DNA of 64,000 nucleotides, taken from Parcubacteria group bacterium GW2011_GWA1_56_13. Lineage in GTDB: Bacteria > Patescibacteriota > Minisyncoccia > Phycocordibacterales > Phycocordibacteraceae. Location of the stretch: contig LCRY01000002.1 of the NCBI GenBank assembly GCA_001004905.1, forward strand, positions 378,129 to 442,128, written 5' to 3'. This document shows, piece by piece, positions 17,265 through 49,684 of the stretch; the first letter of the stretch is position 1, and every line of letters begins with the position of its first letter. Both the position numbers and the translations under genes were made by a program. The notes beneath the pieces are model-generated. The model was given only the letters and a program-made list of their open reading frames with translations. It made no database searches and was not told where the DNA came from.

Positions 17265-19640
17265 TTATTGTTTGACGGGCGTCGACGAGATCGAGAGAAG
17301 ATTTGCCGGAAACGGATTTCTGCCCGCCGCAAGCGCCGCAAGCTGCGACGCGACCGCTGTTGCATTGTCGTCCGAGAACGCGGCTATCGCCTGCATCTGG
17401 GCGAGCGCATCCTCGAAGTTACCCTGCTTCGCGTAGACCGCGGAGAGGAAGTAGCGTGCATTCGCGAACTGCGGGCTCGCGTCAACCGCAGCGGCAAGCG
17501 CGGCGGCGGCGTTCGGAAGGTCATTGCTGGCCGCATACAATATGCCGACCTGGAAGAGGATATTCGGATTATCCGGCGTGAAGTAGGCGGCGGCAAGCGC
17601 GGCAGCAAGCGCTTCCTTCAGATTGCCGTCCTGCACTTCGAGCTGCGAAAGAAGGAAAATGGCGGGCGTGTAGTCCTGTTTGAGCGCGATCGCCGTTTTG
17701 AGATTTTCTTTCGCTCCCTTGATGTCCTGGTTCGCGATATCGAGTTGGGCGAGGACGTAGGGCATTTGCGGATTGGTCGGATTCAGCGCCTGCGCCTTTT
17801 CGTATGCGGTCTTGGCGCTGTCGTAGGCGCCGGCAACTTTGAGCGGCACTGCCTGGGCGTAGAGATTCCCGAGCGTGACCCAGCTTCGATAATCCGAAGC
17901 ATTGATGCGTGTTGCGGTCAGAGCGGCATTGATGCCCGAAGAGAGCGTCGTTTGGAACGCCTGCTGTGCAGCCGACGCCGTCATGGTCGACGAAGCGAGT
18001 ATCTGGTTCAGCCGGGCGTTCGCGACACCCGCTTGGATCTGGTAAGCGACGGCGCTCGGCGCGAACGAGATCGAACTCTGGGAAGCCATATCGGCGGCGT
18101 CAAGATCCCCGGCAGAAAATGCGCTGCCCGCGCTCGTGATCTTCGACGTCGCAATGTAGTGCCCGATGATCGTATATGCGGCGCCCACCGAAGACAGAAG
18201 AAGAATGGTCAACGCGAATACGATAACGAATCCGAGACGCGGACTTCGCGAGAAGATGACTCCCCACTGCGAACTTCCGCTCGCGAAGCGCGTCGTCGAG
18301 ATGAAGAGACCCGCGAAGACGAATGTGAGTGCGAGCAGGACGGAATTCGGCAGACCGAAGATCGCGACCGCGAAGAGATAGAGGGACGCAATGAACGAAA
18401 GTATGGCGACGTAGCGGATGAATGGGTCTTGCGGCGCGCGCTGGATGAGTGTGCGCAAGCCGAACACGATGAAGAGCGCCAAAAGTCCCACCCATGCGAG
18501 GATCCCGAGAATGCCGGTCGTTACCGCGGAAGTCGGTATGAAGCCGATGCCGGATGAGAAATCCGTGTTCCAGAATACGGTCGAATTGAGAGACGCATCG
18601 CGGTATTTGAGCCACTCCGTGCCGAAAGTGCCGGGACCGGTGCCGAAGATCGGAGCGGTCGTATAGACCTTCTGTGTGATCGCAAGCGTTGACTGCCACG
18701 AAGGACGGACCGAAAGGACGTTCACGTTGAGCGCATTCGCGACCGCTCCCCCGAGCGTTCCGCCGATGAGGAAAAAGATCGAGATGGCGAGCACCGAAAG
18801 TGGCAGGATGAGAGAGTGGCTACCGACATCCTCCGCCTCAAGCGGCGTAGATTCAACGCTTACACCAACCTCATCGAGGTCGGTGGACGATCCTCCCGAG
18901 CGGCGCATTACCGCTTCGACGAAGAGTCCAAGAGAGACGAGGGCGATAAGTATCCAGACGAGCTGGGAGTTCGCAACTGCCAGAAGCAGGAGCGCCCCGA
19001 GCCCGGCGAACAGAAGTGCACGAAGGGCGCGCCTGGAGAGGTCAACGAAACGCAACGTGATGAGCGTTCCGATGATGCCGAGTCCGGCGAGAAATGCGAG
19101 ATCATCGTACGAACCGACGAGCGAGAACGACGGCGAGATCGTGTTCGGCGAGAATTGTCCGACGATAAGGATGAGTATCTGCAGGACAACGGCGATGCAG
19201 AACACGTAGGCGGCGACACGCAGATAGGTGCGGTACTGTTCGACGCGCCGCAACGCGAGCGCGGAAAGCGTACCGAGGACCGCGATGATGAGCAGGGAGC
19301 CGAGCGTGTCCGGTTCAAGTGACGAACCCCACAACGCGTTCCCGAACGCGACACCGGAAAATGCCGCCGAGAGCGCATAGGCGAGCACCGGCAGCCATAG
19401 TGCGAGGATGAGCACCGACGGCGGGAAAATGACATTGCCGCGCGAAAGGCGCGCGAGGATATAGAGCGCGAGCGTGATGAGCGCGCCCGCGGCGAGCACG
19501 AACGTTTTTGTCGCCCCGAACGGAACCGCTGTCGACGGAATGAACATGAATAAAGCGACGACGAGCGTGGCAAGAAGCGCCACTACACTTATGGTATCGA
19601 GCGAATGGCGTGCTGCGCGCACTGGCTGTTGCGGGGGCAT
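17265..19640 (-). CDS. O-antigen-ligase-like polytopic membrane protein with C-terminal TPR repeats
   Basis: ~12 TM helices, then TPR-like repeats (AYEKAQALNP..., ALKQDYTPAIFLLSQLEVQDGNLKEA...). Confidence 0.5.
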   Translation of the reverse strand: MPPQQPVRAARHSLDTISVVALLATLVVALFMFIPSTAVPFGATKTFVLAAGALITLALYILARLSRGNVIFPPSVLILALWLPVLAYALSAAFSGVAFGNALWGSSLEPDTLGSLLIIAVLGTLSALALRRVEQYRTYLRVAAYVFCIAVVLQILILIVGQFSPNTISPSFSLVGSYDDLAFLAGLGIIGTLITLRFVDLSRRALRALLFAGLGALLLLAVANSQLVWILIALVSLGLFVEAVMRRSGGSSTDLDEVGVSVESTPLEAEDVGSHSLILPLSVLAISIFFLIGGTLGGAVANALNVNVLSVRPSWQSTLAITQKVYTTAPIFGTGPGTFGTEWLKYRDASLNSTVFWNTDFSSGIGFIPTSAVTTGILGILAWVGLLALFIVFGLRTLIQRAPQDPFIRYVAILSFIASLYLFAVAIFGLPNSVLLALTFVFAGLFISTTRFASGSSQWGVIFSRSPRLGFVIVFALTILLLSSVGAAYTIIGHYIATSKITSAGSAFSAGDLDAADMASQSSISFAPSAVAYQIQAGVANARLNQILASSTMTASAAQQAFQTTLSSGINAALTATRINASDYRSWVTLGNLYAQAVPLKVAGAYDSAKTAYEKAQALNPTNPQMPYVLAQLDIANQDIKGAKENLKTAIALKQDYTPAIFLLSQLEVQDGNLKEALAAALAAAYFTPDNPNILFQVGILYAASNDLPNAAAALAAAVDASPQFANARYFLSAVYAKQGNFEDALAQMQAIAAFSDDNATAVASQLAALAAGRNPFPANLLSISSTPVKQ

Positions 19641-19726
19641 GATGAGTGATTGCTATTTAATTCGTAATGATCCCAGTATACCCGCTATCGTCCTTTGTCG
19701 AGGAACCCATCCACACCGACAAAATG

Positions 19727-19735
19727 TGGTATAAT
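19727..19735 (+). promoter_or_regulatory. extended -10 promoter element (TGgTATAAT) for rnpB
   Basis: tgGTATAATg sits 7-8 nt upstream of the inferred P1 5' strand. Confidence 0.5.
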
Positions 19736-19741
19736 GCATCT

Positions 19742-20614
19742 GGACCGAACCAGGCGACCGCCCCGTGAGATAATTGCTCATTATGGTGCACTACGTATAT
19801 GTGCTTAGGGGACCCAAGCAGTTTTACATCGGTTCTACCAATGACCTAAAGAGACGCTTCGAAGAACATTGTTCTGGAATGTCTTTGGCGACGAAAGGAA
19901 GAGGTCCGTGGAAACTCGTGTATTATGAAGCGTCTCTTTCCCGCAAGGGGGTATTTTCGAGAGAACGATATTTAAAAACTGCTTGGGGGAAGAGATATCT
20001 CAAGAAACGTATCAACGATAGTGAGTAGTTATCTCACGGGGAGGAAAGTCCGAACATGCGCCAATTTTGCCTGCCGCAGGCAGTTGCAAAATTGAGCGTC
20101 CCGAACGAGGTGAGGGGCCTATCCCTCGCAAAAGCCTCGGGGCGCTCGATTCTGTAACCACCTTCGGCGGGCAGAATTGACAAACAGGTAGCGGGTAACG
20201 CCCGCCGTCCGGAAACCTTCGATAAAAGACTCGGGTTCGTCCCGAGTCATGTCGAGGGACAAGGACAGAGGTGCCTACAGAGACGCTTGCGAGCGAAAGC
20301 GAGCAGGCGCCCCATGAGATGTCGCCGCAAGGCGGCTATCTCACGGGGCGAGCTCCCAAGTAATTGGGAGGTGCAACGAGCAAATCCTTACCCGCATGCA
20401 AGGCCGTGACCCAGTGGGATAAAACCTCCGAGATTAGTGTTGCATCTCGAGAACCTAACGGATTTCGAGATACTGATTAAAATCGACATGGGTTATCCCA
20501 CGGGTAGTGCCGCTCGAGCTCGCAAGCGATTGCGGGCCCAGATAAATGGTCGTCGCCGATCCTGCAACCACCTCCGGTGGGCAGGACCGGTACAGAATTC
20601 GGCTTATCGGTTCG
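19742..20614 (+). ncRNA. rnpB: RNase P RNA (bacterial type A) with a ~280-nt insertion in P3 carrying a GIY-YIG ORF
   Basis: P4 motifs gGAGGAAAGTCCGaac (20042) and ACAGAAttCGGCTTATCGG (20590) covary (ccgaa/ttcgg). GGTAACGCC P11/12 motif at ~20190. P1 gaccgaacc (19743) pairs with ggttcggtc (20606). P3 stem ccccgtgagataa / ttatctcacgggg brackets the ORF. Confidence 0.8.
19783..20028 (+). CDS. GIY-YIG nuclease family protein (stand-alone, ~81 aa)
   Basis: YVYVLRG...FYIGSTNDLKRRFEEH GIY-YIG motif. Lies entirely between the two arms of the rnpB P3 stem. The ORF track start is TTG 19774. Confidence 0.7.
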   Translation: MVHYVYVLRGPKQFYIGSTNDLKRRFEEHCSGMSLATKGRGPWKLVYYEASLSRKGVFSRERYLKTAWGKRYLKKRINDSE

Positions 20615-20623
20615 GTCTATACA

Positions 20624-20655
20624 AATGCGAAAACCCGCGCTCCTGCGCGGGTTTT
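20624..20655. terminator. hairpin aaaacccgcgc-tcct-gcgcgggtttt (bidirectional terminator candidate)
   Basis: 11-bp stem flanked by A and T runs, right after the rnpB 3' end. Confidence 0.55.
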
Positions 20656-20681
20656 CGCTTATTCTCGACTAAGCGGAGCGG

Positions 20682-20723
20682 CGGGAGTGATTTCGGAGCT
20701 CCGAAATCACTCCCGCCGCCAAG
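20682..20723. repeat. 42-nt perfect palindrome gcggcgggagtgatttcggag|ctccgaaatcactcccgccgc
   Basis: Seen directly. Lies immediately downstream of the RNR stop (20727, minus strand). Confidence 0.7.
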
Positions 20724-20726
20724 CGG

Positions 20727-23114
20727 CTACACTATTTCACACGTCCCTCCTGCGCAGGCGAGTTCCTTCTTCATTTCCGTTTCGTCCTGACGCTCATATG
20801 CATAGAGTTTCGAATAATCGACTTTCGGGAAGCGCTTCATTCGGTCCTCGTAGTCCTCTTTCGTAATGGCCTCGTACGGAGCGAGGCGGTAGACGTGTTC
20901 GGACCGCGGAAGGAACGAAAGGCCGCCGATGATGTCCCAGTTCCTCTGGATCCAGTCAACAACACCGATCCATTCATCTTCGCTTACCGAGACGGTCGCT
21001 GACGGATTATGCTGGGTGTAATTGATTTTGACCTTTTTCCAATACTCGAGCTGATCAAGCGCCGTGAGGTCGTCCTTGAAACGCGCTTCTTTGGAATGGT
21101 CGGGAGCTTTGACCGGGAATTCGAGTACGTAGGTATTCGCCTCTTCCATGGACTGTCCGACTTCCGGGTACAGCGGCACTCCTTGGTCGCGCATCATTTT
21201 GAAGAGAGAATCGGTCGCGCTAATACGCACGCGGCGAATGTAATACGGCGCGTGGCGCGGATGGATGCCCGACGCGCAGTTGAAGGTCTGCGAGACAGTG
21301 CCCGAGGGCTTGACCGCCGTTACCGCCATCGATCGCTCGATGCCGAAGCGCTTCGCGTACGTCGCGTTCGTCTTGTCCGCCATGTCGCGGACCTTGCGCA
21401 TCACCTCCGCCTGGCGCGCGACCGGCGAGTCCCACTGCCCCGTTATCGAGACGCCGAGAAGCCGTTCCGCGGCGCAATGTTCCGTCCATTCCTTTGATAT
21501 GTAGCTGAATTTTGTCAGCGTCGATTGGTATGTACCGAGAATCGCGGCGAGGCGGGCTTTTCGGATGAGCGATGCTTCCGTGTCACCGGCGCGCGCGATG
21601 ACCTCGGAGAGATTGCAGAACTGTTTCGACTGGAGAATGATCTCGGCGCAGGGATTCGTGCCGATTGGGCCGTGCACGACGCCGTCGTCGCCGATGAAGC
21701 CGACTTTCCTAAAATAATCCACACGGCGCTTCGGAAGCGTTACCGCGAGCGAGCCGCGGTTGAAGATGCCGCGCTCTCCCGCGCCACTCTTCATAAGCGC
21801 GACCCATTCATCCATAAGCTGGGCATTCGTCGGCTGGGTTTCGTAGACCGCGGAGTTATTCGCGACCGAGCGGTGAGGATCGGTCATGTAAAATTGGCCC
21901 TTCTTGGCGTCGCGCATCTCGACATCGTCGAGGTCGGAGAGTGAGATCATCGCGGTACGGCGCACGCCGCCGGCGACCACGCATTCGCCGATCTTACAGA
22001 TAATGTCGTGCGCATCAATGGCGCGCAGACGCCGTCCTTGGCGCTTCAGTATCCTCTCGCGGGCAAACGCGAGGAGAGATTTAAGCGGTTCCGGACCGGA
22101 CGCCTTGCCGCCCATCGTCTTCAGCCGCGCGCCTGCGGGACGGATGCCTGAAAAATCGAAGGTGATGTCTTTTCCGGAATACCAGGTCTTGAGACCGAGC
22201 GTGAGCGCGTCGCACCATCCCTCTTTCGAGTCCGGAATGACATACGTCGGCAACATTTTCCCCGACTGCTTCATGATCTGCGGGAGCTGTTCTATATTTT
22301 GGCTCTCTACAGCGAACCCGACGCCGCATCCCTGCATGGAGAGATACATTATCTCCGCGAAGTCCTCGAGCTTCACGGGCGCCGTGAACGTGCAATTGTA
22401 GGCGCACGTGTTACAGCGACGAGCCGCTTCCCCGGCGAACTGCATGAGGCGCATTGATGGCATCACTTCCTGTTTCAAAATACCCATGCGCACTTCGGCA
22501 TACTCTTTTTCGGTGAGCTTGTCGCCAAGATTCTCGCGCATGAAGCTGACGTAGCGGTCAACCGTCTCTATCCACGTTTCGCGACGCCCTTCTTCCGGTA
22601 TCCATTTCGCGTATGTGCGCAAATATACGAATTCACCGAGCGCGTTGCCTTCAAAATATTTTTTACTCTCTTCCGAAAGCTTTTTTACATGCGCCGGCAC
22701 TTCCACATGCGCCGCGCGCAACTGTGCGCGCTTGTCGCGGTAGAGAATATACGCCTTCGCCGTCTTCACGTAATCATTCAGGATGAGATATTTCTCCACC
22801 GAGTCCTGCGTGCCTTCAACTGTGGGGAGAAAACTCCTGTACCGCTTCGAAAATCGCGCGAGTTCGCCCACGACCTGGTGCGCGATGAGATTCGCATCGT
22901 CCTGACTGCCCTCTCCTGCCGCAGCCATTGCCTTCCACACGGCGGCGGCGATCTTATCGAAATCGAATGGGACCAATCGCCCGTCCCGCTTCTCGATTTG
23001 CGGGATTATTTCTCGATACCGGCGTGTTTCTTTGGAAACCGGAGGCACCGCGACCTCTGCAACCGGAACAACCGGCACTTTTACACGGACGGAATCTTTG
23101 GCGACTTTGGACAT
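20727..23114 (-). CDS. ribonucleotide reductase, class II-like (adenosylcobalamin-dependent) with N-terminal ATP-cone
   Basis: ATP-cone IEKRDGRLVPFDFDKI, large RNR barrel, C-terminal Cys pair CAGGTCEIV. No glycyl-radical motif. Confidence 0.6.
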   Translation of the reverse strand: MSKVAKDSVRVKVPVVPVAEVAVPPVSKETRRYREIIPQIEKRDGRLVPFDFDKIAAAVWKAMAAAGEGSQDDANLIAHQVVGELARFSKRYRSFLPTVEGTQDSVEKYLILNDYVKTAKAYILYRDKRAQLRAAHVEVPAHVKKLSEESKKYFEGNALGEFVYLRTYAKWIPEEGRRETWIETVDRYVSFMRENLGDKLTEKEYAEVRMGILKQEVMPSMRLMQFAGEAARRCNTCAYNCTFTAPVKLEDFAEIMYLSMQGCGVGFAVESQNIEQLPQIMKQSGKMLPTYVIPDSKEGWCDALTLGLKTWYSGKDITFDFSGIRPAGARLKTMGGKASGPEPLKSLLAFARERILKRQGRRLRAIDAHDIICKIGECVVAGGVRRTAMISLSDLDDVEMRDAKKGQFYMTDPHRSVANNSAVYETQPTNAQLMDEWVALMKSGAGERGIFNRGSLAVTLPKRRVDYFRKVGFIGDDGVVHGPIGTNPCAEIILQSKQFCNLSEVIARAGDTEASLIRKARLAAILGTYQSTLTKFSYISKEWTEHCAAERLLGVSITGQWDSPVARQAEVMRKVRDMADKTNATYAKRFGIERSMAVTAVKPSGTVSQTFNCASGIHPRHAPYYIRRVRISATDSLFKMMRDQGVPLYPEVGQSMEEANTYVLEFPVKAPDHSKEARFKDDLTALDQLEYWKKVKINYTQHNPSATVSVSEDEWIGVVDWIQRNWDIIGGLSFLPRSEHVYRLAPYEAITKEDYEDRMKRFPKVDYSKLYAYERQDETEMKKELACAGGTCEIV

Positions 23115-49210: not shown

Positions 49211-49613
49211 GGGGGTGACCGGCTTTGACGGTCTGTACCTTGAAATGCGTGCGACGCAGTGCACTCCCGCTCACCACTGTAAACTGGCGGGAAACAAACT
49301 TGCCAAGAACACTCTTGCAAGCGCGAAGCAGTCGCCTTACTTCGGTAAGGTCGGCGATATCGCGTTCGCCTACGCGACGGCTCGCGGCTAACGCCCGTTC
49401 ATCCTCCCGGGTTTTCGCAGCCGGAGGCATGGGCGGAATTATCTGCGGAATCGGTCCTTCGTTCTCCCGAACTGAGGATCTAAACAAGGGATCGGGCAGG
49501 AATGGTTTCGCCGGCGTTCCTCGCATCCTGCCTTAGACACGAACGTTGGCTATGCGTCGTAGAAGCGCTTTCATAGACGGATTCGGACCGGGGTCCAATT
49601 CCCCGCACCTCCA
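49211..49613 (+). ncRNA. ssrA: tmRNA (SsrA), one-piece
   Basis: 5' GGGGGUGACCGGCUUUGACGG, 3' tRNA-like domain GGACCGGGGUCCAAUUCCCCG CACCUCC A. Candidate tag ORF ends ...AFAYATARG-TAA at 49389-49391. TGgTATTCT -10-like element at 49193. Confidence 0.8.
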
Positions 49614-49684
49614 CAAAATAACGAGTCCTGAAAGGACGACTATATTTTGTGAGAGTACTGAGTTCTGTCCGCAGAACGAACGTG

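Follow-up and report, generated by a model that had tools for sequence, protein, structure and literature searches.

The rnpB locus of a member of Ca. Kaiserbacteria (Parcubacteria) raises the question of whether a protein-coding gene can reside inside RNase P RNA, which is among the most studied ribozymes, and, if so, what the structure that carries it is. The window (the whole 64-kb stretch of DNA that was analyzed) contains a type A RNase P RNA gene at 19741 to 20619 on the forward strand, about 879 nt long, and between its 5′ strands and P4 lies an ORF of the GIY-YIG nuclease family. The first-pass annotation, made from the sequence alone, had put this ORF in the loop that ends P3, spanned by the P1 pairing, and had likened the insertion to a homing endonuclease gene. 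Our main reading, to which we assign a probability of about 0.8, is that the nuclease gene lies in the loop of a hairpin element that forms P3 of a functional rnpB gene. In the literature searched, no earlier report of a conserved protein gene inside RNase P RNA was found. The features of the locus are listed in Table 1.

Table 1. Features of the rnpB locus and of the ORF nested within it (window coordinates).
Feature	Position	Strand	Details or evidence
Extended −10 promoter of rnpB, TGgTATAAT	19727-19735	+	5-7 nt upstream of P1
P1 5′ strand, UGGACCGAACC	19741-19751	+	Pairs with 20609-20619
P2 5′ strand, GGCGACC	19753-19759	+	Pairs with 20548-20554
P3 5′ strand	19761-19784	+	12-nt core arm CCCCGUGAGAUA (19761-19772); extension reaches into the start codon
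GIY-YIG nuclease ORF	19783-20028	+	ATG 19783, stop 20026-20028, 81 codons
Helix inside ORF, 5′ arm CCCAAGCAGUUUU	19813-19825	+	Codons PKQFY; 13 bp with 19975-19987
Helix inside ORF, 3′ arm AAAACUGCUUGGG	19975-19987	+	Codons KTAWG
P3 3′ strand	20018-20041	+	Holds UAG stop (20026-20028) and core arm UAUCUCACGGGG (20030-20041)
CR-I and P4 5′ strand, AGGAAAGUCCGAAC	20042-20055	+	Sequence; covariation
P5	20055-20059 with 20394-20398	+	Inspection
Three-hairpin insertion between P5 and P7	~20061-20183	+	Inspection
Specificity domain	within 20055-20399	+	P7, P8 (20191-20205, loop GGUAACGCC), J11/12 ACAGAGA, P12, P13-position hairpin, P14
ORF-less hairpin of the same family, P13 position, GCCCCAUGAGAU-GUCGCCGCAAGGCGGC-UAUCUCACGGGGC	20309-20349	+	Source of the repeated 12-mer
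P14, GUAA loop	20353-20370	+	
P15-P17 arm	20400-20516	+	Rfam alignment
P16 stem, CCCAGUGGGAUA with UAUCCCACGGGU	20410-20421 with 20494-20505	+	Variant of the P3 arm sequence
P18, GCGA tetraloop	20518-20537	+	Rfam alignment
J18/2 AGAUAAAU and P2 3′ strand GGUCGUC (20548-20554)	20540-20554	+	Rfam alignment; covariation
Extra hairpin between P2 and P4, P19-like position	20556-20590	+	86% identical to hairpin 20147-20174
CR-V and P4 3′ strand, ACAGAATTCGGCTTA / ACAGAAUUCGGCUUA	20592-20606	+	Sequence; Rfam alignment; covariation
P1 3′ strand, GGUUCGGUCUA	20609-20619	+	Inverted-repeat and covariation evidence
Intrinsic terminator	20627-20658	+	14-bp stem, then T-rich tail

P1 and P2 close across the ORF

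An Rfam scan of the window at the gathering threshold returned no RNase P match, and a local scan with RF00010, a search that the first-pass annotation had suggested, reached 51.4 bits against a gathering score of 100, which we attribute to the insertions. The ORF-bearing relatives score about 50 bits with the same model. Most of the ORF-less genes tested reach the 100-bit threshold; those with the same P3 stem score 280, 276, 220, 180, and 105 bits, with two more at 86 and 98. In these ORF-less relatives, the model labels the stem P3 and the adjoining upstream sequence P1/P2, and the P3 arm is aligned as the 3′ strand of P3. The same problem in detecting rnpB was reported for CPR by Lui et al. 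(2021). In the window, the best local alignment (51 bits) begins at 20336 and leaves out the upstream strands. It misassigns the second copy of a 12-mer, TATCTCACGGGG, at 20337 to 20348, as P1/P2, and the Rfam model alone therefore cannot settle the topology.

The criterion for a type A RNA, a P4 built from the conserved CR-I (GAGGAAAGUCC) and CR-V (ACAGAAnnCGGCUUA) strands, is met, with both strands present. All the sequence features that the first-pass annotation described are present, some of them 2 to 3 nt away from where it had put them. The motif GGAGGAAAGTCCGAAC, given as the P4 5′ strand, lies at 20040 to 20055 and not at 20042, the P4 3′ strand lies at 20592 to 20606 and not at 20590, and the 3′ arm of P1 lies at 20609 to 20617 and not at 20606. 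The motif GGTAACGCC is found at 20194 to 20202. The specificity domain was assigned by inspection against the layout of Escherichia coli M1 RNA together with the Rfam alignment of one relative (L001), and P5 and P7 to P14 in Table 1 are what we take to be these elements on the basis of the E. coli layout. Rfam aligns this domain in L001 (P7 to P12, the P8 loop, J11/12 ACAGARA, and P13/P14) and skips it in the window.

The 9-bp P1 pairing proposed at first pass holds. Its arms, GACCGAACC (19743 to 19751) and GGTTCGGTC (20609 to 20617), are perfectly complementary, and the helix extends to 11 bp (19741 to 19751 with 20609 to 20619) once G·U pairs are counted. Among 39 distinct related rnpB genes, all 11 pairs of P1 and all 7 pairs of P2 show changes on both sides, with 94.5% of the P2 cells pairing; P4 is 99.7% paired, with 2 covarying pairs (GAAC/UU, GGAC/UC, GGGC/CC, and GAGC/CU), and the core of P3 is 99.4% paired, with 3. 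In the covariation test on these relatives, 92% of the cells pair, compared with 35 to 44% when the partner is slid, and none of 500 shuffles reached the observed pairing. Of 44 related rnpB genes, 75% have a P1 with 8 or more contiguous pairs, compared with 11% when the 3′ side is shuffled; between genomes, the P1 sequence is wholly different and its complementarity is kept. In addition, the fold of the full RNA (about 878 to 879 nt) has a z score of −17.6, and its minimum-energy structure joins P1 and P2 across the ORF. P1 and P2 close across the ORF beyond chance, and the covariation is decisive.

These data all but exclude an arrangement in which an ordinary stand-alone gene precedes a 5′-truncated or unusual rnpB that begins at about 20029 and the complementarity of P1 and P2 arose by chance. 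That explanation is favored by the start of the best Rfam local alignment, downstream of the P1 and P2 5′ strands, and by public annotation, in which the ORF is a stand-alone "excinuclease ABC subunit C." Against it stand the covariation of P1 and P2 in 39 genomes, the position of P1 and P2 directly 5′ of the same stem in ORF-less relatives, and the absence, between the ORF and P4, of any sequence able to supply the P1/P2 strands. The first-pass annotation had held that its reading would fall if relatives carried the nuclease gene at an unrelated locus and a normal-length rnpB starting at the equivalent of 20029. Normal-length rnpB genes and nuclease copies away from rnpB do exist, but those rnpB genes start at the equivalent of 19741.

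The extended −10 element is the sole promoter-like element upstream of the ORF. No sigma-70 promoter was found across 19400 to 20900 by a two-hexamer scan, and a TAnnnT hexamer lies 3 to 16 nt 5′ of the P1 start in 32 of the 44 related rnpB genes. With its only promoter, and the 5′ strands of P1 and P2, located upstream of it, the ORF would depend for its expression entirely on the primary transcript of the ribozyme, which would then be the sole mRNA of the nuclease; co-transcription and translation are inferred in the absence of transcript data. ORF-bearing short public contigs were considered as transcripts and rejected; they are genomic fragments that end just past the ORF and give no transcript evidence. 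The window sequence from 19741 to 20619 is likely a functional RNase P RNA gene, although its cleavage of pre-tRNA is inferred, without assay data.

The GIY-YIG gene and its product

The ORF is a real protein gene under purifying selection, with a median dN/dS of 0.11. The start that matches the homologs is GTG at 19786, giving a protein of 80 amino acids (aa), and most of the 439 homologs are exactly 80 aa long. The product matches Pfam PF01541 at 46.1 bits (cut-off, 22.6; E = 6e-12). Twenty columns of the alignment are invariant; Y4, Y6, Y15, G17, R25, H29, and E49 are invariant in 37 sequences, and their roles are taken to be catalytic on the basis of I-TevI and UvrC. The structure model (pLDDT, 92.6), with strands at residues 3 to 9, 14 to 19, and 44 to 51 and helices at 22 to 30, 54 to 64, and 67 to 80, meets the criterion for the β-β-α-β-α GIY-YIG fold, and its closest fold matches are UPF0213 BH0048 and Slx1 (rmsd of 1.8 Å over 71 columns). 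The NCBIfam "group I intron endonuclease" model scores 22.5 bits against a cut-off of 56. The homing-endonuclease-like character claimed at first pass is refined by these results to that of an 80-aa single-domain protein, nearer to Ssn, UPF0213, and Slx1 than to the classical intron homing endonucleases; its nuclease activity is inferred, none having been shown for this family. The GC content of the ORF is 44%, compared with 56% for the window, and over 27 loci, the corresponding figures are 38% (ORF) and 48% (rnpB body).

Dozens of related genomes have the nuclease gene nested in P3 of rnpB. The comparison of rnpB loci among relatives, which the first-pass annotation had also called for, finds the ORF present in some and absent from others at the same site, with a P3 loop of 252 to 257 nt with the ORF and 3 to 71 nt without it. 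ORF-bearing and ORF-less P3 stems interleave by rnpB similarity, among close relatives, and this presence/absence polymorphism at one conserved site is accompanied by decayed copies. In two ORF-less relatives (L126 and L087), the first and last codons of the deleted ORF remain, and in L098, P3 itself is a mini-hairpin of the same family. The divergence of the ORF correlates weakly with that of rnpB (Spearman, 0.22); the rnpB bodies align poorly, so this correlation cannot separate vertical from horizontal history. The uniformity of the protein, which is strongly conserved and mostly 80 aa long, exceeds what the classical cycle of gain, decay, and loss of homing endonuclease genes (HEGs) predicts and counts against a selfish reading.

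The P3 stem as a probable hairpin element

The 13-bp stem around the ORF (19761 to 19773 with 20029 to 20041), recognized at first pass, holds and grows in the RNA to 24 contiguous pairs (19761 to 19784 with 20018 to 20041). The extension is 80 to 92% paired, with compensatory changes, and the ratio of G·U to A·C in the stem, in a strand-asymmetry comparison, is 70:37, which is compatible with a hairpin that matters as RNA or as DNA. The earlier placement of the ORF in the terminal loop of P3 is supported by the covariation of P1, P2, P3, and P4 in the 39 relatives, and the ORF-carrying stem is likely P3 of the RNase P RNA. That placement is refined in one respect: the stem is probably the inverted repeat of a mobile element, rather than a helix original to the RNA into which the element inserted.

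The same arms flank the ORF at sites other than rnpB in other CPR lineages and in Verrucomicrobia, Ignavibacteria, KSB1, Cloacimonadota, and Elusimicrobiota. At these sites, the arms run outward (TATAC.../...GTATA and TTCAC.../...GTGAA) into a longer inverted repeat unrelated to RNase P, and in other phyla, the module is also found inside protein-coding genes. ORF-less mini-hairpins occur in tandem with ORF-bearing copies. More distant homologs have variant arms, such as CCCCGTTAGATA and TCCCGTTAAAGAC, and the arms change with the protein lineage. Protein relatives are encoded at 446 genomic loci, and the arm-P4 junction is found on only 55 metagenome contigs. None of the non-rnpB copies in CPR lies inside rRNA or other known RNAs; tmRNA or tRNA genes are merely neighboring. 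Because a module with the same arms is present at unrelated sites and the arms track the protein lineage, P3 is inferred to consist of the repeat arms of a selfish hairpin element.

No member of the hairpin family lies outside rnpB in the 64-kb window, which is odd for a freely transposing repeat and counts against the mobile reading. The recurrence of the 12-mer reported at first pass held, and the accompanying suggestion of an alternative pairing did not. The 14-bp pairing of 19759 to 19772 with 20337 to 20350 is a by-product, as the second arm has a local partner at 20310 to 20320. The position of the mini-hairpin varies between relatives.

A reverse origin, in which the CCCCGUGAGAUA stem is the native P3, the rnpB P3 is the primary homing site, and the other copies took pieces of P3 with them as co-converted flanks, is unlikely. 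In its favor, very canonical ORF-less rnpB genes (276 to 280 bits) have this stem as P3, the ORF-less P3 stems end in GNRA or UUCG-type loops, as native RNA helices typically do, and the hairpin family is restricted to rnpB in the window. Against it, at least six other phyla have the ORF between these arms, in a longer inverted repeat unrelated to RNase P, the arm sequence follows the protein lineage, and the loci with protein relatives (446) outnumber the metagenome contigs with the arm-P4 junction (55).

The protein could also be regarded as a domesticated partner that binds CCCCGUGAGAUA-type helices (P3, P13, and P16), aids RNase P assembly or function, and is co-expressed with it from P3, but this too is unlikely. 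Strong purifying selection and constant length, an arm sequence common to several helices of the same RNA, and the lack of copies outside rnpB in 64 kb speak for such a role. However, close relatives without the ORF keep a normal rnpB, the module occurs at unrelated loci, even in protein-coding genes, in other phyla, and no RNA binding is seen with the related Ssn proteins (PMC11893778). In addition, the invariance of the catalytic GIY-YIG residues favors a nuclease over a scaffold.

Fate of the insert and parallels in known systems

Under the main reading, the element would be selfish, and its nuclease would recognize the hairpin that carries it, probably in extruded or single-stranded DNA form; this is proposed by analogy with Ssn, without activity data. 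The element may spread, or be restored, via recombinational copying into ORF-less hairpins. RNase P is inferred to tolerate it because P3 is peripheral and points away from the catalytic core, and the position of both the start and the stop codon inside the 24-bp stem is inferred to keep translation low. The insert of ~260 nt may be retained as a rod on the mature ribozyme. Alternatively, a double-strand-specific cut in the long stem would remove the insert and leave a two-piece ribozyme joined by P1 to P3, a route modeled on the removal of 23S rRNA intervening sequences (IVSs) by RNase III. No RNase III signature motif was found in a six-frame translation of the 64-kb window, which is uninformative for the rest of the genome. 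To our knowledge, no naturally fragmented RNase P RNA has been described.

A further alternative is that the insert is an intron, self-spliced or spliced by a host enzyme and religated so that a short P3 loop is restored. The richness of CPR structural RNA genes in endonuclease-bearing group I and II introns (PMC11270868) is consistent with this, and the long stem would juxtapose both junctions. However, group I and II intron models gave no match in 19650 to 20700, even at E values up to 10. The loop is 257 nt long, of which the ORF takes up 246, so that a ribozyme core could not fit. The GIY-YIG ORFs of CPR rRNA insertions likewise lie outside recognizable introns (PMC11270868), and a bacterial hairpin-splicing pathway is not known. 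We consider an intron very unlikely and retain the hairpin element as the preferred reading.

The closest known system is that of the Ssn nucleases (NTS/SRM-ssnA-NTS/SRM; cd10448), GIY-YIG proteins of a single domain that are encoded between cognate hairpin repeats (Chenal et al. 2025, PMC11893778). They reportedly do not act on RNA or double-stranded DNA (PMC11893778). Both systems have a protein of ~80 to 94 aa with a single GIY-YIG domain and no separate DNA-binding domain, and the Ssn size criterion (~90 aa and one domain) is met here by 80 to 81 aa and one domain. Both also have an insertion-sequence-like architecture, and in both the gene is bracketed by hairpin repeats that co-vary with the protein lineage and ORF-less copies of the hairpin exist. 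The nuclease gene in rnpB lies within one hairpin, whose arms pair with each other, whereas an Ssn gene lies between two small hairpins, and the host site here is a ribozyme helix, whereas NTS repeats are mostly intergenic. The published SRM repeat consensus of Ssn is absent from the locus, and the nearest relatives of known structure are UPF0213 and Slx1. That the rnpB system works like Ssn rests on analogy, as membership in cd10448 has not been shown and single-stranded DNA cleavage is inferred.

GIY-YIG ORFs have also been found in insertions outside introns in CPR rRNA genes (Tsurumaki et al. 2024, PMC11270868). Those insertions belong to the same radiation and, like the present one, are not group I or II introns and are located in a stem-loop, either at its top or at its base. 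Here, RNase P RNA takes the place of rRNA as the host, and RNase P is not mentioned in that paper. The rRNA ORFs are sparse and outside a homing context, whereas the rnpB element has a fixed site in P3 and a presence/absence pattern in a large clade. The IVSs of 23S rRNA, some of which contain ORFs, are removed by RNase III without religation, and they are mentioned in PMC11270868. They share with the P3 element an extended helix in place of the terminal loop of an essential RNA, a long near-perfect basal stem, a sporadic distribution, and an ORF in some cases. The criterion for an IVS-type stem (at least about 20 bp) is met by the 24 pairs, which are conserved with compensatory changes. The IVS ORFs encode the 23S rRNA IVS protein family and not nucleases, and excision has not been shown here.

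HEGs are found in peripheral loops of group I introns, I-TevI being an example. As in that case, a catalytic RNA harbors a GIY-YIG ORF in one of its terminal loops, RNA structure sequesters the start codon, and relatives differ in whether they have the ORF. However, the RNA that hosts it here is no intron and is not cut out of any other RNA, and the protein lacks the long DNA-binding domain. Classical HEGs reside in introns or inteins or stand free between genes, whereas this gene lies in a helix of a structural RNA. Palindromic elements such as REP/RAYT, the Rickettsia palindromic elements, and the Neisseria Correia elements also land in genes. They resemble the present family in that hairpins are tolerated in RNA genes and in-frame in protein genes and in that one enzyme gene accompanies many ORF-less copies. 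They differ in having a Y1 transposase or no known enzyme, and they are not known to carry an enzyme gene in the hairpin loop or to occur in RNase P RNA.

A bolder reading, which we regard as falling short of even odds, is that these modules represent an unrecognized class of selfish elements, in which the inverted repeat of the element closes a loop that holds its gene. Such elements would use the helices of structured RNA genes as safe harbors, would land in-frame in protein genes, and would have become P3 in a large Parcubacteria clade, where the RNase P RNA would be a bifunctional ribozyme-mRNA or naturally split.

The locus is a natural experiment in how much a catalytic RNA tolerates at P3, and it suggests that an RNase P RNA could occur naturally in two pieces or that the ribozyme could also serve as an mRNA. 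It also accounts for the undetected rnpB genes of many CPR genomes, which score ~50 bits, and for the 80-aa "excinuclease ABC subunit C" annotated there; a covariance model that permits a P3 insert would correct both annotations. In addition, it brings together three subjects that have been treated separately, namely CPR structural RNAs laden with insertions, GIY-YIG ORFs in rRNA insertions that are not introns, and the Ssn/hairpin-repeat systems, and suggests a common mechanism that rests on hairpin recognition. The small nucleases and their cognate hairpins (CCCCGTGAGATA, the two variant arms given above, and others) may serve as a set of sequence- or structure-specific enzymes.

The ORF also contains structure of its own. 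Its 13-bp internal helix (Table 1) is 92 to 97% paired across 37 CPR elements and does not vary, synonymous sites included. Another 13-bp helix in the ORF (19848 to 19860 with 19927 to 19939), perfect in this genome, was rejected as not conserved, and the inner helices are 33 to 58% paired. Separately, a repeat matching at 14 of 15 nt is shared by the ORF (19845 to 19859) and J11/12-P12 (20274 to 20288) and likely reflects the resemblance of the LKRR codons (AAGAGACG) to the ACAGAGACG core.

Position of the ORF within the RNase P RNA gene

The first-pass annotation had read the GIY-YIG ORF as lying inside P3 of the RNase P RNA, with P1 closing across it, and all of the sequence elements that it listed are present in the window, at slightly shifted coordinates. 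The -10 element lies 5 to 7 nt 5' of P1, and a TAnnnT hexamer occupies the equivalent place before P1 in 32 of 44 relatives. Folding of the 878-nt RNA is much more stable than that of shuffled copies of it (z = -17.6), and in the minimum-energy structure P1 and P2 close across the ORF. An Rfam scan of the window at the gathering threshold reported no RNase P RNA, and a permissive local scan gave 51.4 bits against the required 100, in an alignment that misuses the second 12-mer. In CPR bacteria, RNase P RNA was reported to be divergent, with large extensions of its helices and scores that are often under the Rfam thresholds (Lui et al. 2021, PMC8172020).

Dozens of independent rnpB loci came from two sources: the genomic surroundings of homologues, and metagenomes scanned for the point at which the P3 3' arm joins P4. 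In every ORF-bearing case, the distance from the stop codon to GAGGAAAGTCC is 12 nt, ACAGAAnnCGGCTTA lies 243 to 629 nt beyond GAGGAAAGTCC, and the sequence directly 5' of the 5' arm complements that directly after the P4 3' strand, with P1 sequences being wholly different between genomes. Pairs were counted in 39 distinct genes on four joined segments (P1/P2/P3 5', P3 3'/P4 5', J18/2-P2 3', and P4 3'/P1 3'). Paired cells amounted to 92.0%, compared with 35 to 44% when the 3' partners were slid by 1 to 3 columns, and none of 500 shuffles reached the observed pairing values. Both sides change at all 11 pairs of P1 and all 7 pairs of P2, and pairing is 99.4% in P3 (three covarying positions) and 99.7% in P4 (two). 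The covariation of P1 and P2, with the slide and shuffle controls, therefore places their 5' strands truly upstream of the ORF, which is located in the loop of P3. This covariation in relatives supports the earlier reading, with refinements, and there is little doubt that this is a genuine rnpB gene with the ORF nested in its P3.

The P3 stem is common to ORF-bearing genes (loops of 252 to 257 nt) and ORF-less genes (3 to 71 nt) in the metagenome scan. Among the checks proposed with the first-pass annotation, the covariance-model comparison with and without the insert was made with natural ORF-less relatives and showed a score gap: seven of these scored 280, 276, 220, 180, 105, 98, and 86 bits on RF00010, the Rfam type A model, compared with about 50 bits for ORF-bearing genes. 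Another, a comparison of relatives for presence or absence of the insertion at rnpB, found both states at P3. In those ORF-less alignments that were inspected, the model calls GCCCCGUGAGAU...AUCUCACGGGG P3 and the nucleotides immediately 5' of its arm P1 and P2. One ORF-less locus, L126, is a close relative of the window with an equal promoter and P1/P2 layout, and its loop keeps ATTGTTC...AGATAAAATAGTGAGTAGT, both ends of the insert; another, L087, keeps the first five and last few ORF codons. Both loops are clear remnants of deletion. In a ranking by how similar the rest of rnpB is, ORF-bearing and ORF-less genes interleave.

Features of the rnpB locus and of related elements (window coordinates unless a relative's locus, L-number, is named)
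Feature	Position	Strand	Remark
TPR membrane protein gene	17265-19640	-	flanks rnpB
Extended -10 TGgTATAAT	19727-19735	+	sequence
P1 arms GACCGAACC / GGTTCGGTC	19743-19751 / 20609-20617		perfect complement
P1 including wobble pairs	19741-19751 with 20609-20619		11 bp
P3 stem CCCCGTGAGATAA / TTATCTCACGGGG	19761-19773 / 20029-20041		paired
GIY-YIG ORF	ATG 19783, stop 20026-20028	+	Pfam GIY-YIG, E = 6e-12
Conserved motif GGAGGAAAGTCCGAAC	20040-20055
Motif GGTAACGCC	20194-20202
Second copy of 12-mer TATCTCACGGGG	20337-20348
Conserved motif ACAGAATTCGGCTTA	20592-20606
Terminator	20627-20658		strong; 3' of rnpB
Class II ribonucleotide reductase gene	20727-23114	-	flanks rnpB
ORF-less hairpins of arm family	20309-20349; 20410-20505		P13 position; P16
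ORF-less hairpins of arm family, L001	1777-1871, 2033-2127, 2182-2276
Second hairpin family copies	20147-20174 vs 20557-20584		86% identical
Elements in DUF1016/YhcG-like genes	L034 507-2027; L036, L037, L062; L079, L084
Elements near tmRNA	L027 475-876; L030 995-1402

The nuclease and its copies outside rnpB

The homologue search found 439 proteins, the majority of exactly 80 aa and many from Parcubacteria/Paceibacteria genomes, and a protein from the Candidatus Kaiserbacteria assembly GCA_003531405.1 shares 99% identity with the ORF product. Across 37 aligned homologues, 20 columns are invariant; they include the tyrosines of GIY and YIG, Arg25, His29, and Glu49. The structure is confidently predicted (pLDDT 92.6) to have the GIY-YIG topology. 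Among solved relatives, the UPF0213 proteins BH0048 and EF2693 come closest in both sequence and fold, followed by Slx1, a structure-specific nuclease, which fits hairpin recognition. The protein does not reach the threshold of the NCBIfam "group I intron endonuclease" model. The ORF is under purifying selection, with a median dN/dS of 0.11 among 23 rnpB-borne copies (synonymous sites are often saturated), and each of the 33 distinct copies in rnpB has the same orientation as rnpB. Its GC content is 44% versus 56% for the surroundings in the window, and 38% versus 48% as means over 27 loci. Gene callers at times run the ORF on into the ribozyme (proteins P0008, P0012, and P0044), and the tail ...LSHGEESPN of such over-extended calls is the translated P3 3' arm plus GGAGGAAAGUCCGAAC. 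Public contigs often stop within 10 to 180 nt past the ORF (L142 to L144), suggesting that assemblies break at rnpB on account of the repeated hairpins.

These 12-nt arms also bracket the ORF at loci unrelated to RNase P. Other CPR lineages provide examples, such as Lloydbacteria, where uvrD lies on one side and a LysM gene on the other; the arrangement is also present in Verrucomicrobia, Ignavibacteria, KSB1, Cloacimonadota, Elusimicrobiota, and Peregrinibacteria. The inverted repeat reaches further outward at these sites (TATAC-CCC...GGG-GTATA or TTCAC-CCC...GGG-GTGAA), and ORF-less mini-hairpins with an equal stem are often tandem to the ORF-bearing copy. The arms of more distant homologues are variants (CCCCGTTAGATA, TCCCGTTAAAGAC, and TCCCGTTAGAGATA), and thus the arm sequence tracks the protein lineage. 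The insert is likely a mobile module, with P3 being the module's inverted repeat. In the inferred mechanism, for which there are no activity data, the element would be selfish and persist through hairpin recognition; repair would copy the ORF into ORF-less hairpins, with occasional internal deletion, which would yield the observed patchwork of ORF-bearing and ORF-less genes. P3 is peripheral in bacterial RNase P holoenzyme structures, and its outward extension may be tolerated for this reason. The mobile-element explanation as a whole is considered likely (probability of about 0.8).

By analogy, the closest characterized system is Ssn, single-domain GIY-YIG proteins of about 94 aa that bind a hairpin repeat flanking their own gene and cut ssDNA beside it, with dsDNA and RNA not being cut (Chenal et al. 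2025, PMC11893778); membership of the P3 nuclease in cd10448 is not shown, and the published Ssn repeat consensus is absent at the rnpB locus. Some insertions in CPR rRNA genes also carry GIY-YIG ORFs without being group I or group II introns (Tsurumaki et al. 2024, PMC11270868, in which RNase P is unmentioned). The relevant passages of PMC8172020 do not describe an ORF in CPR RNase P RNA, and the literature searched yielded no account of a protein-coding gene within bacterial RNase P RNA. Two known kinds, the nuclease/hairpin selfish element and the ORF-bearing insertion in a structural RNA, are joined here; what is new is that the host is RNase P RNA, and that the gene lies within its own inverted repeat, which serves at the same time as a ribozyme helix.

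In Verrucomicrobia, DUF1016/YhcG-like PD-(D/E)XK nuclease genes contain the ORF-in-hairpin element and extra mini-hairpins, and in six of the seven cases the host frame stays open from one end of the element to the other; at two loci (L079 and L084), the element interrupts the catalytic D-L...K motif. The host protein may be made with an insert of ~100 aa or be inactivated, or the element may be removed from the RNA. Two CPR genomes have the nuclease element outside the tmRNA gene but no more than about 600 nt from it.

RNA structure, expression, and fate of the insert

Projection of the window fold onto 37 CPR elements revealed two conserved features. The first is a basal stem of about 24 bp, composed of the 12-bp core and an extension holding the start and stop codons, which is 80 to 92% paired and, in the extension, rich in compensatory changes; its G.U to A.C ratio of 70:37 is compatible with an RNA or DNA role. 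The second is an internal 13-bp helix (CCCAAGCAGUUUU with AAAACUGCUUGGG, 19813-19825 with 19975-19987) in which the codons for the two best-conserved peptide motifs, PKQFY and KTAWG, pair with each other; it is 92 to 97% paired and invariant even at synonymous positions. This complementarity, which is perfect in the window, is a nucleotide-level constraint within the coding sequence, with no function assigned. Conservation of other insert helices was not found among the 37 elements, and a perfect 13-bp helix of the window (19848-60 with 19927-39) is not conserved among them.

No other promoter-like site was found preceding the ORF, and therefore the nuclease mRNA is the RNase P RNA precursor itself, as inferred from sequence alone without transcript data. 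There are likewise no transcript data on the insert, which may stay on the mature RNA or may be cut out by cleavage in the 24-bp stem. Such cleavage would resemble the removal of 23S rRNA intervening sequences by RNase III, and P1-P3 would then hold a 5' piece of about 40 nt to the rest of the ribozyme. Splicing, in which the ends would be religated once the insert is removed, is unlikely given that intron models yield no match and that the loop is too small for a ribozyme core.

ORF-less hairpins of the P3 arm family build other helices of the window RNase P RNA, at the P13 position and P16, and at a relative's rnpB locus (L001) they occur at the P5/P7 junction, P16, and a P19-like position; arm sequence outside rnpB is absent throughout the 64-kb window. 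An insertion of about 120 nt with three hairpins lies between P5 and P7 (20061-20183), and a second hairpin family (CGATTCTGTAACCACCTTCGGCGGGCAG) occurs in it and again between P2 and P4, where a relative (L010) has a similar hairpin. The ORF also shares a 14/15-nt direct repeat (19845-19859 and 20274-20288) and a 10-nt perfect complement (19928-19937 and 20279-20288) with the J11/12-P12 region; the complement could let the ORF pair with the specificity domain, or it may be due to chance. The two genes flanking rnpB are also found at L001. The window further contains a tmRNA (49211-49616) with a modest score of 86.9 bits and large unaligned insertions, and eight tRNA genes (at 295, 492, 1221, 11247, 12459, 13217, 23666, and 46613).
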